A DNA stretch of 36,650 nucleotides, from contig CAYHRN010000001.1 of assembly GCA_964359155.1 (NCBI GenBank), positions 1 through 36,650 of the forward strand, written 5' to 3'. The position numbers and the translations under genes were made by a program. How positions within the stretch are numbered: position 1 is the stretch's first letter; the number at the start of each line of letters is the position of its first letter. A model generated the notes under the pieces. It searched no databases, had not been told where the DNA came from, and saw only the letters and a list, made by a program, of their open reading frames with translations. Origin of the DNA: an uncultured Gammaproteobacteria bacterium. GTDB taxonomy: Bacteria; Patescibacteriota; Patescibacteriia; CAYHRN01. Below, piece by piece: positions 1,985 to 34,324 of this stretch.

Positions 1985-3789
1985 AGAGAAATAGTTCGAT
2001 CGGTTTTCAAATCAGTTTGAATCTGTTTGGTTATCTTCGCAGAGTTTATACTGAAAGTCAAAGGAATTGCAGGCGTGCCAGCCTGCTTGATAAGCTTCAG
2101 GGTATAGATGCCCGCCTTGACTTGTTCTGCTACGGCTGCGGCGAGTATATACCGAAAGCTAATAGTTTTTTCTTGCCCAGGATCGACAGTAAAAAATGTA
2201 CCAAAGGTGGTATGCCCAAGCTCGGACGCAGTTTCTATACCCTGATCATTGCCTTTAAGTACTGAGCCTTCGGGCACCAAAATGCGCGTATAGCTGCGAT
2301 AGGTACCCCATTTCCATGAATATGTGCCGGTATTTTTATAGGTACTACGTACTTCGGCAGTAAGTGAAGTGTCGGTGTTTTGCGTCACCGTGTAGGTTAT
2401 ACTTTTTTGCATGACTTGATCGGTTTTAAGTGCGCGCATATTAGCATCCAGCACTATCAGCACATCCTCACCTGGCTTTGGCGTGTCAACTACTGGGCCT
2501 GCAACATTATGGGTAGCAAGAGTGCGATTGATGGAAGGGTCAAGCGTCCACGCCATGAGGGCGCGTTCTTGGGCACTTTCCATAAGTACATCAAGCACCC
2601 TTTGCCATTCACCAATAGGTAAGCGCAGGAGGGCGGTTTTTAATGCATGGGCAAAAGGCCCAATAATTTCTTTACGTTGCGTTTTAGGAATGCGTTTGCC
2701 AATATAGCCTTTTTCTACATGCCATTCGAGTACATCAAAAATAGTGCTGGCAGTAAATGTTTCGCCTTCCACACTTATGGGCCCCGTAAGCTCTAATAGT
2801 TTTGCAATAAGGGTGGGGGTGAGTGCAATAACGCCATTGATATTCTCTGCATGAGCCCCTTGTTCAAGACGATAAAAACTTAACGCGCGTTGTGCGTTTA
2901 TGGCAAAGTCGGGCGACCAATTACTATCACGCAGCAGCCATTTATTAAATGAGGGCGTAAGAAGGTATTTACTCATAGGTGGCGGTGGCGTTACGCTAAG
3001 GCGCGCATGCGAGGGACGATCCAGATTATAAATATCGTCGGTCGTGAGATCTTGCACTTCGCCGTCGGTAACCTTCAGCACGCCATAGGTGCCAATAAAT
3101 CCTCCGCCTGGGCGCAGCTCAAAATTATTCATCAAAAGCAATAAGTAGCTTTGAGATGTCCTGTATCCGGCCATATAGGGCACAATATCAACAAAAGATT
3201 GGAGTTTTTTAGCACCAGGTATTACAGCAGTGAGTAGTTCCTGCGCTTGTGCTACATAGTCACCCAAAGGGTTAAGAAGTGCTTCAGGTTGAAGTGCCTT
3301 CAGCGTGGTAAGTGTTTGCTCACTATGGGTAGTAAAGGTGGTAAGTAGTGGTGCGCTTTCGATGGCCATGCGGAGTAATTGACGTCGTGCTTCTGGCGGT
3401 ACATCTTCTATACGCTCTATAGTAGGGACTAGTTGCAATATGCGCTGCACCTGAAATGCTAAGGGAAGCATATCGTCTATAGTAGTAGCTGCCGCAGCAC
3501 TTAGTGTACGCATGGCAGAAATTTGGGTGCCAAGTATTGGTAAACGTGGAAGAAGGCGGAGGTATTGAAGATCATTATTAAGTTGGGCGATTTCTGGGGC
3601 AAGTGTTTCAATGGTATTGAGCATGATGCTGATATCATTGCTGCGGTAGGCGGCTTGCACGCCCTCTCCTTCTTGTCTTAAGAGTCGCACGTCACGCACG
3701 ACGCGCGCAGTAAAAAACGCATCATAGGTGAGGAGCCCCCCAAGGCCGCCTAGCAGAACAATGATAAGGATGCGTAAGAATGATTTCAT
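1981..3789 (-). CDS. DUF4012-like membrane-anchored protein
   Basis: N-terminal TM helix. The core LLLLMNNFELRPGGGFIGTYGVLKV matches the NNxExRxxGG signature I associate with DUF4012. The track start at 3798 is TTG; the ATG at 3789 (MKSFLRILIIV) is more likely. Confidence 0.6.
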   Translation of the reverse strand: MKSFLRILIIVLLGGLGGLLTYDAFFTARVVRDVRLLRQEGEGVQAAYRSNDISIMLNTIETLAPEIAQLNNDLQYLRLLPRLPILGTQISAMRTLSAAAATTIDDMLPLAFQVQRILQLVPTIERIEDVPPEARRQLLRMAIESAPLLTTFTTHSEQTLTTLKALQPEALLNPLGDYVAQAQELLTAVIPGAKKLQSFVDIVPYMAGYRTSQSYLLLLMNNFELRPGGGFIGTYGVLKVTDGEVQDLTTDDIYNLDRPSHARLSVTPPPPMSKYLLTPSFNKWLLRDSNWSPDFAINAQRALSFYRLEQGAHAENINGVIALTPTLIAKLLELTGPISVEGETFTASTIFDVLEWHVEKGYIGKRIPKTQRKEIIGPFAHALKTALLRLPIGEWQRVLDVLMESAQERALMAWTLDPSINRTLATHNVAGPVVDTPKPGEDVLIVLDANMRALKTDQVMQKSITYTVTQNTDTSLTAEVRSTYKNTGTYSWKWGTYRSYTRILVPEGSVLKGNDQGIETASELGHTTFGTFFTVDPGQEKTISFRYILAAAVAEQVKAGIYTLKLIKQAGTPAIPLTFSINSAKITKQIQTDLKTDRTISL

Positions 3790-3794
3790 ATAGT

Positions 3795-4595
3795 TCAACG
3801 CGGGAGTGCGCGATTACAATACTTCCAAAAATATTTAAAGCCCGAGGCAATATGAGCGCGCATAGGGCGAGAACATAATGCATGCAAAATACTTTCATTG
3901 GCTGACATGCGCCTATGGTAATGAATCATATGCGCATGTGGTAGGTATACCACCTTTAGGTGATGTTCCCAAAATCGTCGGCAGAAATCAGTGTCTTCAA
4001 AATATAAAAAAAAGCGTTCATCAAGGAATCCCACGGTTTTGATATGTTTACGTTTAAACATCAAGCATGCTCCTAATAGCCAATCTACTTCTTGGGTTGC
4101 AGTGTGGTCTGCATCTATCATAATGTAGCTCCGCACTGCCTGTTGACCTTGTGGTAATCGCCCCAGTGGTGTACGGCGATACAGCGGCGTAAGAATGGTG
4201 GGGAAGTGTGCACATGAGTATTGAATGCTCCCATCAGGATTTGAAAGTTGTGGCCCTACGAGGCCTACATCTTCATGTAGCTTGAGGTATTCCACCATTG
4301 CTTCAAGTGCACCTTGTTGCACCACGATATCGGGGTTCATGAGCATCACATACTCCCCCTGTGCTCTGCGGAGCCCCATATTGTTGCCCGCAGCAAAGCC
4401 GCAGTTATAAGGAGATGGTATGAACTGCACATCTTTGAACTCATGCTGTATCATTGCTGCGGTGCCGTCACTCGAGGCATTGTCAATAACAATAATTTCA
4501 TAGCGCAACTCCGGCTTTGCACGGGCAATGCCTTTTAGGCAGTATTTAAGAAGTCCTTTGGTGTTATAGTTGAGGATGACAATAGATAGGTCCAT
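3795..4595 (-). CDS. Glycosyltransferase family 2
   Basis: 266 aa. LSIVILNYNTKGLL...VIDNASSDGT...NCGFAAGNN and a DxD-like FEDTDF motif. ATG start. Confidence 0.85.
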   Translation of the reverse strand: MDLSIVILNYNTKGLLKYCLKGIARAKPELRYEIIVIDNASSDGTAAMIQHEFKDVQFIPSPYNCGFAAGNNMGLRRAQGEYVMLMNPDIVVQQGALEAMVEYLKLHEDVGLVGPQLSNPDGSIQYSCAHFPTILTPLYRRTPLGRLPQGQQAVRSYIMIDADHTATQEVDWLLGACLMFKRKHIKTVGFLDERFFLYFEDTDFCRRFWEHHLKVVYLPHAHMIHYHRRMSANESILHALCSRPMRAHIASGFKYFWKYCNRALPR

Positions 4596-25274: not shown

Positions 25275-26153
25275 TTATTTTTGTGTTTTAAAACGAATAT
25301 CTGTACCATCACTCGTCATGGCGATATCGCCATTTTGGTCAGTACGATAGATTGTTGCTCTATGTTCTTGTAATCGTTGTACCACGGTGGGGTGTGGGTG
25401 TCCATAACCGTTGTTGGCACCAACCGAGATGACTGCGTAATCAGGATTTACTGCCTTCAGCCAGGCTTCGGTGGTAGAAGTTTTACTGCCATGATGGCCT
25501 ACTTTTAATACGTCAGCGGCAAGATTATGCTGTTGGGCGATAAGGTGCTTTTCGCCTTGGGCCTCTAAGTCGCCCTCAAGCATCACTGAAGTATCTTTGA
25601 ATCGCAATAGCCCCACCACCGATGAGTTATTCATATTTTTGTATGCGCCAAGGGTGCGGTCGGGGTACAAGATATCAAGCGTGAGGCTATCCCCCATACG
25701 AATACGGAGTGGTTCATGAATAAACGTGGTGGGAATATTACGCGTGGTGAGTTCTTCCAAAAATTTGGTGTAGATAGCATTGGGTGCGTCCACACTGCTT
25801 ACAAGGGCTTGCTTTACTTTGTAGCGTTTCAACACATCGAATAAGCCTTTGTAATGGTCGGTATGGGGGTGACTCACCACCATAAGTTCAATGTCTCTGT
25901 CCCAGAACGGCAAGGTGCGGCCCACTTTGCCTACGAAAGCGTTATTGGGGCCGCCGTCGATAATAATATCTTGGCGGTAGGGCGTGCGAATAAGGATGCC
26001 ATCGCCCTGCTCCACATCAAAAAACCACATACGAAGGCTGCTATCGCTTGCATCGCTCGTGAGGGCAATAAGTGCCACGCCGCTTAATGCCCAGGCAATG
26101 GCGAGTACGGCAAGAATAAGGCGAAGGGTTTTAGTGGTCATAGATTGTAACAT
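25275..26153 (-). CDS. ComEC-type metallo-beta-lactamase domain protein (separate ORF with its own TM helix)
   Basis: 292 aa. VSHPHTDHYKGL (HxHxDH) and KVGHHGSKTSTT, typical of the ComEC/Rec2 C-terminal MBL domain. N-terminal TM segment. Confidence 0.8.
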   Translation of the reverse strand: MLQSMTTKTLRLILAVLAIAWALSGVALIALTSDASDSSLRMWFFDVEQGDGILIRTPYRQDIIIDGGPNNAFVGKVGRTLPFWDRDIELMVVSHPHTDHYKGLFDVLKRYKVKQALVSSVDAPNAIYTKFLEELTTRNIPTTFIHEPLRIRMGDSLTLDILYPDRTLGAYKNMNNSSVVGLLRFKDTSVMLEGDLEAQGEKHLIAQQHNLAADVLKVGHHGSKTSTTEAWLKAVNPDYAVISVGANNGYGHPHPTVVQRLQEHRATIYRTDQNGDIAMTSDGTDIRFKTQK

Positions 26154-26244
26154 GTCATTCCGAGTGAAACGAGTTTAGGTTTTGGTAGCCGCAGGCTTCA
26201 GCCTGCGTTCATCTAAGGTTCGCAAGCTAAAGCTTGCGCCTACC
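26153..26244 (+). repeat. Composite intergenic repeat: a TGTCAT-type unit plus a REP doublet (REPIN-like)
   Basis: tgtcattccgagtgaaacgag occupies 26153-26173. ggtagccgcaggcttcagcctgcg-ttcatctaaggt-tcgcaagctaaagcttgcgcctacc occupies 26184-26244. By hand alignment it matches the 33560-33620 doublet at 54 of 61 positions, with compensatory stem changes. Confidence 0.75.
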
Positions 26245-33559: not shown

Positions 33560-33620
33560 GGTAGGCGCGGGCTTTAGCCCGCGTTCATCTAAGGTGCGCA
33601 GGCTAAAGCCTGCGCCTACC
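33560..33620 (+). repeat. REP doublet (REPIN-like): two inverted GTAG-hairpin units
   Basis: ggtaggcgcgggctttagcccgcg - ttcatctaaggt - gcgcaggctaaagcctgcgcctacc. Each half is GTAG plus a 7-8 bp GC stem with a 4-nt loop, and the halves are reverse complements of each other. Confidence 0.8.
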
Positions 33621-33640
33621 AGACGCACAATTCGTTTATA

Positions 33641-34171
33641 TTAAATTTCATTCCATGTATCGAAGTTATACAGCGTTGATCCTTTAAAAGGATATTGTTG
33701 CCAATTTTGTACAAGGTTTTTGCGTAATGGATTCGCAAGAATATACTTTACTTGTTTTGTAATATCTTCGTCTTTTCTGAGGATGTGATCGTAAAAATCT
33801 TTTTGCCACGCTGCGCCACTCTTGCATTGAGAGAGCCAATAGCCTGTTTTTTGTTTAAAGTTTTTCATGCACGTATAGAGATCGGACGATTCTTGTGTAC
33901 CTGTTAGAAGAATATGAATATGATCTGGCATAAAGAGATACACGTGGGCTTCGCAGGAATATGTTTTCAAGGATTGAAGTAATATAGCCTCGATTGCATT
34001 GAATCGTTCTTGTGCAGTAAAGAACAGCATTCTATTTTTTACACACATAGTAAATGCGGCACACACGGTGCCAGTATAAAGACTCCGATCTAGGCGATGC
34101 GATTTTTCGAGGATTGGTTGCATAGGCATATTGGATTTATTGGTAGTCGCAACCTTTAGGTTGCGTTCCAT
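33641..34171 (-). mobile_element. REP-associated tyrosine transposase (RAYT; IS200/IS605 Y1 HUH family) gene
   Basis: HUH motif in YLFMPDHIHILLTG and the catalytic Tyr context VKYILANPLRKNL. The first roughly 10 codons of the track ORF are a REP hairpin, so the real start is probably the ATG at 34129 or 34123. REP copies lie on both sides. Confidence 0.85.
34142..34165 (+). repeat. REP unit variant (GTAG plus hairpin CGCAACC-TTTA-GGTTGCG)
   Basis: ggtagtcgcaacctttaggttgcg. Relative to ggtaggcgcgggctttagcccgcg, three stem positions differ and all three are compensated on the opposite arm. Confidence 0.55.
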
Positions 34172-34244
34172 GGCTTTGGTTCTATAAAATCATTTTGTCA
34201 TTATAACAGAAGAGCCTGGCATACGCCCGGCTCTTTTTAGAAAG

Positions 34245-34274
34245 AAGGTGCGCAGGCTAAAGCCTGCGCCTACC
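34245..34274 (+). repeat. REP unit (single), identical to the right half of the 33560-33620 doublet
   Basis: aaggtgcgcaggctaaagcctgcgcctacc is identical over 30 nt to 33591-33620. Confidence 0.8.
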
Positions 34275-34290
34275 ATTTTGATGTTACAGT

Positions 34291-34318
34291 AAATAAAAAG
34301 GCGGGCAAAATGCCCGCC
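34291..34318 (-). terminator. Intrinsic terminator of the pyrophosphatase gene
   Basis: Minus strand reads GGCGGGC-atttt-GCCCGCC followed by TTTTTATTT, directly after the stop at 34325. Confidence 0.7.
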
Positions 34319-34324
34319 TTCCTT

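Follow-up and report, generated by a model that had tools for sequence, protein, structure and literature searches.

The RAYT locus

The DNA analysed here is a stretch of 36,650 nt (the window, to which all coordinates refer unless a contig is named) from G000, a genome of 0.8 Mb whose source is a 0.2 µm sample of Hainich groundwater, and its subject is a gene for a REP-associated tyrosine transposase (RAYT, or TnpA-REP) surrounded by repetitive extragenic palindromes (REPs). The gene occupies 33641-34123 on the minus strand and encodes a 160-aa protein of the Y1/HUH type, with the histidine pair H68-I-H70 and the catalytic tyrosine Y127 in a YILANP segment. Four GTAG-tagged hairpins surround it. 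Beyond the stop codon lies an inverted doublet (33560-33620, reading GGTAGGCGCGGGCTTTAGCCCGCG-TTCATCTAAGGT-GCGCAGGCTAAAGCCTGCGCCTACC), of which the inner arm, GTAGGCGCAGGCTTTAGCCTGCG, is sense to the gene and 21 nt past the stop (33597-33619, minus strand), and the outer arm is GTAGGCGCGGGCTTTAGCCCGCG (33561-33583, plus strand); as single-stranded DNA (ssDNA) the doublet is predicted to fold into a single long REPIN-like hairpin of -31 kcal/mol. On the other side of the gene a single REP, GTAGTCGCAACCTTTAGGTTGCG, stands antisense to it 19 nt before the ATG (34143-34165, plus strand), and further upstream an oppositely oriented unit (34251-34273, minus strand) repeats the sequence of 33597-33619. 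The two copies are part of a 31-nt perfect direct repeat on either side of the gene (34245-34275 equals 33591-33621), and the innermost REPs, 34143-34165 (+) and 33597-33619 (-), are inverted about it, as they are at homologous loci. All these units had been recognised in the original prediction, which counted five hairpins in all; the window holds six, the other two forming a second doublet some distance away.

The longest open reading frame (ORF) spanning the gene, 33641-34171 on the minus strand, has 176 codons for amino acids. We consider the ATG at 34123 (MQPILEKSHRL...) the most likely start, since homologues are 155-165 aa long and the public gene call is also of 160 aa; with this start the REP at 34143-34165 is therefore upstream of the gene and outside it. 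The extended -10 sequence proposed earlier does exist, as TGTTATAAT on the minus strand (34208-34200). A consensus promoter scan missed this -10-like element because a -35 is absent, and it is a plausible RAYT promoter that would place the proximal REP in a putative 5′ UTR. A second public contig encoding the identical protein proved to be this DNA again, differing at 2 of 1755 nt and not at all in the REPs.

Identity of the protein

The protein is a RAYT and not an IS200 transposase, as originally proposed. Its ORF contains PDHIHIL and KYILANP, that is, the HIH motif and the tyrosine region already noted from the letters. It matches the Pfam family Y1_Tnp (PF01797, 35.2 bits) and passes the NCBIfam model NF047646 (REP_Tyr_transpos; 89.8 bits, cut-off 80), whereas it fails the IS200 model NF033573 (22.9 bits, cut-off 55). 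A phmmer search against the Protein Data Bank (PDB) gave the E. coli TnpAREP structure 4ER8 as the sole significant match (4.6e-8, against 0.76 for ISDra2). The fold agrees: an AlphaFold2 model built from 26 homologues (pLDDT 92.6) has 4ER8 as its best PDB match in Foldseek (TM 0.69, rmsd 2.4 Å), with IS200, IS608 and ISDra2 at a TM of about 0.53. H68/H70 and Y127 align with H59/H61 and Y115 of E. coli RayT and are invariant across the 26 homologues. The residues that contact the GTAG guide in 4ER8 are W94, Q95, W99, E100, H101 and R104 (PMC6006769); their equivalents here are W106, Q107, Y111, D112, H113 and R116, four of them identical and two conservative, at positions invariant or nearly so within the family. 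Of the RAYT-specific motifs described by Nunvar 2010, an N-terminal Thr and NP(L/V)(R/K)xG after the tyrosine (PMC2817692), the first is present as T25; the second is taken up below. A search of the 806-kb, 95%-complete assembly returned one RAYT of this clade; the gene is single-copy in it, the outcome of a check that had been proposed at the outset.

A dispersed REP family with covarying stems

Each REP consists of GTAG, a 7-bp stem and a TTYA loop. A wider population was sought genome-wide with the pattern GTAGNCGCNNNCTTNAGNNNGCG (GTAGNCGCnnnCTTyAGnnnGCG), which specifies 14 bases, using the reversed pattern as control. There are 24 exact matches in 0.806 Mb and 0 for the control, with a chance expectation that we estimate at about 0.006; when mild mismatches are permitted, the population comes to about 26 hairpins, spread over 18 loci and 12 contigs. 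This density, about 30 per Mb, is substantial for a genome of 0.8 Mb. Inverted doublets are found at nine of the 18 loci (eight tail-to-tail, one head-to-head), and nearly all loci sit between long ORFs, with REPs next to intrinsic terminators and at gene ends. One REP on contig C2, considered as lying in frame within the threonyl-tRNA synthetase gene, was rejected as such, being upstream of that gene. A scan against Rfam returned only sub-threshold long-hairpin noise.

An alignment of 27 units shows little or no change in GTAG, the basal CGC/GCG and the closing C-G, and good conservation of the TTYA loop, while stem pairs 4-6 are variable yet paired (AU/GC, AU/GC and GC/CG/AU, respectively). 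The compensated stem differences first seen among the hairpins of the window thus extend to the genome: with 24 doubly-changed cells, the observed covariation was reached by 0 of 500 shuffles, and 90% of the stem positions pair, against 23-38% for slid partners. Such compensation could result from selection by the enzyme or from hairpin-templated correction of quasi-palindromes, and the data fit both.

One REP brackets homologous genes in many phyla

Homologues of 45-61% identity are found in Patescibacteria (Uhrbacteria), Ignavibacteriota, Bacteroidota, Nitrospirota, Zixibacteria, WOR-3, Planctomycetota and others, the labels of metagenome-assembled genomes (MAGs) being the submitters' own, and several of the contigs that carry them are 0.2-3.7 Mb long. 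The joint genome institute (JGI) annotates some of them as "REP element-mobilizing transposase RayT". At 74 of 81 homologous RAYT loci, drawn from many phyla, the gene has essentially the same REP on both sides, usually as a +/- doublet lying 20-100 nt upstream, with a + unit at most about 30 nt from the stop. What is new here is this observation, that homologous RAYTs of many phyla are bracketed by essentially one REP.

The stems covary between genomes as well. A selection made on GTAG and CTTYAG alone yielded 262 units from 446 kb; at their six other pairs, each of which shows 3-4 pair types, 96% are Watson-Crick, against 17-27% for shifted partners. More distant RAYTs (37% identity) from the class of G000, at loci L109 and L138 of genome G056 and L110 of genome G095, are flanked by a variant REP of unchanged layout, GTAGCGGAnnnCTTyAGnnnTCC, in which CGC/GCG has become GGA...TCC; the stem base therefore changes along with the protein. 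These patterns suggest that the enzyme would read GTAG, the stem base CGC/GCG and the C-TTYA-G apex, leaving the three middle pairs free as long as they are paired. Although its RAYT has GGA-type flanks, G095 carries 19 CGC-type REPs at other places; these are either orphans of a lost RAYT or served, together with the GGA type, by the one divergent enzyme.

The REP also occurs on about 40 predicted viral contigs of IMG/VR (loci L150-L204), some of which have 3-5 copies. Among 72 matches to the pattern on such contigs, 56 have a perfectly complementary middle triplet (about 1 expected by chance). No RAYT was found on the retrieved stretches of these contigs. The matches could represent carriage by phages or proviruses, or host DNA within viral calls.

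Distribution within the class of G000

G000 is a genome of the candidate phyla radiation (CPR), which agrees with its earlier description as CPR-like; we call it so because of its 0.8 Mb and because its GTDB class is shared with "Candidatus Uhrbacteria", a part of the Patescibacteria/Parcubacteria group. Two genomes of the class, G039 and G128, are the same as NCBI records of that name, as their identical match coordinates show. Among the genomes searched G000 is the sole member of its family.

Of 401 genomes of the class, nine have the REP at three or more copies (50, 24, 19, 10, 10, 6, 3, 3 and 3) and seven have the RAYT clade (E<=1e-20). The RAYT is present in five of the nine REP-bearing genomes versus two of the other 392; since these genomes, although of different families, are related, this is an association rather than a formal test. 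The REP is thus sporadic in the class and tracks the RAYT.

It had been suggested that a RAYT/REP system is unusual for CPR. Full-text literature searches returned no paper in which REP, RAYT or REPIN is connected with Patescibacteria or CPR. The genes themselves are common, since RAYT-family members above the curated cut-off occur in 54 of 200 genomes of the class, some with at least 10 copies, and the taxon is less exceptional than had been supposed. Two or more GTAG hairpins accompany the gene at 12 of 30 inspected loci of these other RAYT-family members, with several inside the ORF. GTAG...CTAC palindromes inside RAYT-family reading frames are seen at L113, L115, L122, L131, L137 and L140 (e.g., GTAGGCGAGGATGATCATCCTCGCCTAC), and hairpins inside the ORF have been described for TnpAY1 subclass 2.4.

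Another member of the class, G401 (locus L092), is a MAG of 1.0 Mb with the NCBI title "uncultured Gammaproteobacteria bacterium", a label that looks wrong given its placement in the same CPR class. The REP pattern matches it 35 times, with the same sequence in 34 of these, and NF047646 five times. Its REP population looks like a recent burst.

Relation to known REP systems

E. coli TnpAREP/RayT (YafM; 4ER8; Bertels group 2, Quentin subclass 2.2) resembles the system of G000 in its Y1/HUH fold, in the RAYT C-terminal elements and in the conservation of HUH, catalytic tyrosine and GTAG-contact residues, as well as in the single-copy gene, the REP flanks and the GTAG hairpins. The doublets of G000 combine two different REP types, as do the bacterial interspersed mosaic elements (BIMEs) of E. 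coli. The two proteins share merely about 22-24% identity, however, with motifs DHIH/WQ/YILANP in G000 and EHMH/WQ/YIYINP in E. coli, and in the REPs of G000 the stem is short, at 7 bp, and perfect, and closes on a TTYA loop, whereas those of E. coli have a long bulged stem. The numbers differ too: about 26 REPs in a 0.8-Mb CPR genome against hundreds in E. coli.

The RAYTs of Pseudomonas and Xanthomonads (Bertels group 3, Quentin subclass 2.5) appear closer. That group is described as having DH[LF]H, WQ and YI[VI]ANP motifs, a length of about 151 aa and short REPs; with it G000 shares a protein of about 150-160 aa with MPDHxH / WQ / YI[VIL]ANP, a REP layout of GTAG, 1-2 nt, a 6-7 bp stem and a TTTA/TTCA loop, and inverted doublets able to fold as one long hairpin. 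Judged by motifs and REP layout, subclass 2.5/group 3 would be the nearest published group. Unlike group 3, G000 has no abundant master REP sequence, and the patchy multi-phylum spread of its family contrasts with the vertical inheritance reported for that group.

Our comparison with reference RAYTs covered rayT of E. coli K-12 and three plasmid or chromid genes and was made through profile scores. Against the profile of the family, distant members of its own clade score 139-152 bits, while proteins from Pseudoalteromonas and Pseudomonas (2.5-type motifs) reach 75 and 63 bits, a Bernardetia protein 72 bits and E. coli RayT 46 bits. This gap makes the RAYT family of G000 a distinct clade. Overall we regard the system of G000 as a genuine REP/RAYT system, of a fairly ordinary sort, in a lineage that has been little documented.

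Proposed mechanism and alternative explanations

Gene identity, repeat family, covariation and RAYT-REP linkage are all observed, and we consider it likely that they belong to a functional REPtron, in which a single-copy RAYT is bracketed by cognate REPs and accompanied by a small dispersed intergenic population of singlets and inverted REPIN/BIME-like doublets. By analogy with E. coli TnpAREP, a monomeric HUH enzyme would bind the folded REP hairpin in ssDNA and read the unpaired 5′ GTAG via the conserved WQxxF(Y/W)(D/E)HxxR segment. Catalysis, which we infer from the same analogy, would consist of cutting and rejoining the strand through Y127, with the metal held by H68/H70; REPs may thereby be mobilised in trans, spreading or being rearranged. 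The REP-RAYT-REP unit itself may have been acquired as one block.

Several points weigh against a functional REPtron. With about 26 copies the population is far under the >100 typical of model REP systems, and there is no sign of current activity or recent amplification: no 23-mer occurs in more than three copies in G000, and the sole identical 24-mers are the two that flank the RAYT gene. Copy numbers are lower bounds, the assembly being fragmented into 85 contigs and 95% complete. After the catalytic tyrosine the protein has NPLRKN, where N replaces the usual G (the family consensus is NPVRKG). Four genomes of the class have REPs without a RAYT match at E<=1e-20, namely G335 (10 copies; rated 100% complete), G217 (6), G212 (3) and G396 (3), whose REPs may be populations that have outlived their RAYT.

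The main rival is a relic system. A REPtron would have arrived once and its RAYT would now be inactive on the dispersed REPs, which either persist as host transcript-end hairpins or insulators by terminators, or decay slowly. The heterogeneous population with few identical copies, its adjacency to intrinsic terminators and gene ends, and the class genomes that retain REPs with no detectable RAYT are all consistent with such a relic, and G000 is unlike G401, whose near-uniform copies (34 of 35 identical) have a recently active look. Against a dead enzyme stands an intact ORF in which catalytic and GTAG-contact residues are all conserved, and stems that are still 90-100% paired argue for continuing constraint or turnover. 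We hold the relic to be improbable, although it is the alternative to be taken most seriously.

A second possibility, to which we give very little credence, is an ordinary autonomous element of the IS200/IS605 type, selfish and moving horizontally, with the hairpins as its subterminal ends and the dispersed copies as derivatives similar to miniature inverted-repeat transposable elements (MITEs). The TnpA proteins of IS608 and ISDra2 share HUH/Y1 chemistry on ssDNA with the RAYT of G000, they recognise subterminal hairpins and a nearby tetranucleotide, and hairpins of the same orientation bracket their gene; the 31-nt direct REP repeat around the G000 gene is reminiscent of left-end and right-end hairpins of this kind. 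The patchiness across phyla and inside the class, and the lack of synteny with relatives, would also suit a mobile element. The protein is nonetheless far under the cut-off of the IS200 model and structurally more distant from these enzymes (TM about 0.53), and its tyrosine motif is YILANP rather than Y-x3-Q. Furthermore, no tnpB adjoins the gene, the hairpins are dispersed without it, and it is single-copy in G000; genomes with two copies have divergent paralogues (L031/L065 and L057/L099) instead of duplicates.

Finally, that host regulatory or terminator repeats unrelated to the transposase lie beside it by chance has nothing but the position of REPs near terminators in its favour and is effectively refuted by the presence of the same REP at 74 of 81 homologous loci in many phyla and by its change when the protein diverges.

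Other features of the window and genome

The second REP doublet of the window (26185..26243) consists of units at 26185-26207 (+) and 26221-26243 (-) around the same 12-nt spacer, TTCATCTAAGGT, as in the RAYT-proximal doublet. Our recount agrees with the earlier figure of 54 identical positions out of 61 between 26184-26244 and 33560-33620, and by our own count four of the seven differences make up two compensated pairs. Its arms are more divergent, and as ssDNA it is predicted to fold into two separate hairpins. The doublet occupies the gap between an ORF for the ComEC channel (Pfam Competence) and a separate ORF for the MBL domain, and it provides, within 26153-26243, the final codons and stop of the channel ORF. 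We considered the doublet as the cause of the ComEC split and rejected it, given that the MBL half is a separate frame (about 240-540 aa) in 24 of 26 relatives; only two of the 26 have a fused frame (about 890-900 aa).

Upstream of the RAYT gene, the intrinsic terminator of an H+-pyrophosphatase (H+-PPase) gene (34295..34323, minus strand) marks the boundary of the REP-RAYT-REP unit. An extra hairpin at 34211-34238 (AGAGCC...GGCTCT followed by TTTT, with an A-run preceding on the other strand) stands upstream of the putative RAYT promoter, on the near side of the distal REP, and may be an insulator or terminator that separates the PPase gene from the RAYT.

G000 has two further Y1/HUH genes, on contigs C46 and C21 (loci L002 and L003), for proteins of about 245-258 aa with NHFH / FQ / YIH[CL]NP motifs. 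They reach only 37 bits on the RAYT model and belong to a different subfamily, which resembles Quentin subclass 2.1. Each is flanked by its own long perfect palindrome: CAGGGCCTCGCCCTG-TA-CAGGGCGAGGCCCTG at C21:60-110 and 835-885, and CAAGGATCATCCCTG-TA-CAGGGATGATCCTTG at C46:2435-2480, 3080-3125 and 3820-3865. The palindromes have a common core, CCCTGTACAGGG, with co-varying arms, and all five copies adjoin their genes, none being dispersed, in a "TIRtron"-like layout. The commonest 16-mers of G000 belong to other GC-rich repeats, such as CACCCTCACCCCCGCC (17 copies) and the hairpin CCCTCTCCCGCAAGGGGAGAGG (12 copies). Counting these families beside the REP, several repeat families therefore coexist in 0.8 Mb.

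Inheritance and implications

A maximum-likelihood tree built on 86 proteins places the RAYT of G000 with two Uhrbacteria (support 90/81), and the backbone is without resolution. Phylum labels change 25 times on this tree, against a minimum of 12. Forcing the seven CPR rows to be monophyletic costs 14.5 log-likelihood units and is not rejected by the approximately unbiased (AU) test (p = 0.17), so that polyphyly of the CPR RAYTs is not demonstrable. The neighbours of the gene in G000 are those for the H+-PPase and a nucleotidyl transferase (RmlA), and at homologous loci we found no synteny with either. The original prediction spoke of a domesticated system, a term that we do not retain in view of the position, which is non-syntenic with relatives, and of the patchy distribution.

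According to the literature, RAYTs are vertically inherited and the establishment of REPINs in new hosts is very unlikely. The distribution found here fits two histories: the whole REPtron was transferred repeatedly, or it was acquired once long ago and then lost many times. We tentatively put forward, as a possibility somewhat short of probable, that these loci represent an undescribed lineage of compact REPtrons (REP doublet, 160-aa RAYT, REP) with a single REP "code", patchily present in at least 10 phyla. The code of the proposed lineage would comprise GTAG, a CGC/GCG stem base, a free middle triplet and a C-TTYA-G apex, and the lineage takes in ultra-small Patescibacteria, with one match from a bin whose label is that of a DPANN archaeon.

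What is known of REP/RAYT systems comes almost wholly from large proteobacterial genomes, and they are presented as ancient partners that their hosts inherit vertically. G000 offers a clean classical example in a symbiont-type genome of 0.8 Mb, where intergenic bases are at a premium. The family as a whole is a natural experiment on how a hairpin is read, with positions that are fixed, that co-vary or that change with the protein, and it is a test case for the movement of REPtrons between hosts. On the practical side, REP hairpins stand at gene ends, fill gene junctions, as at ComEC, and can be taken for coding sequence and wrongly translated as N-terminal extensions. The multi-phylum spread with one conserved REP is the aspect that most deserves follow-up: should the proposed lineage prove true, RAYT and REP would be able to settle together in new hosts through horizontal transfer, contrary to the prevailing view of an almost strictly vertical REPIN-RAYT inheritance.

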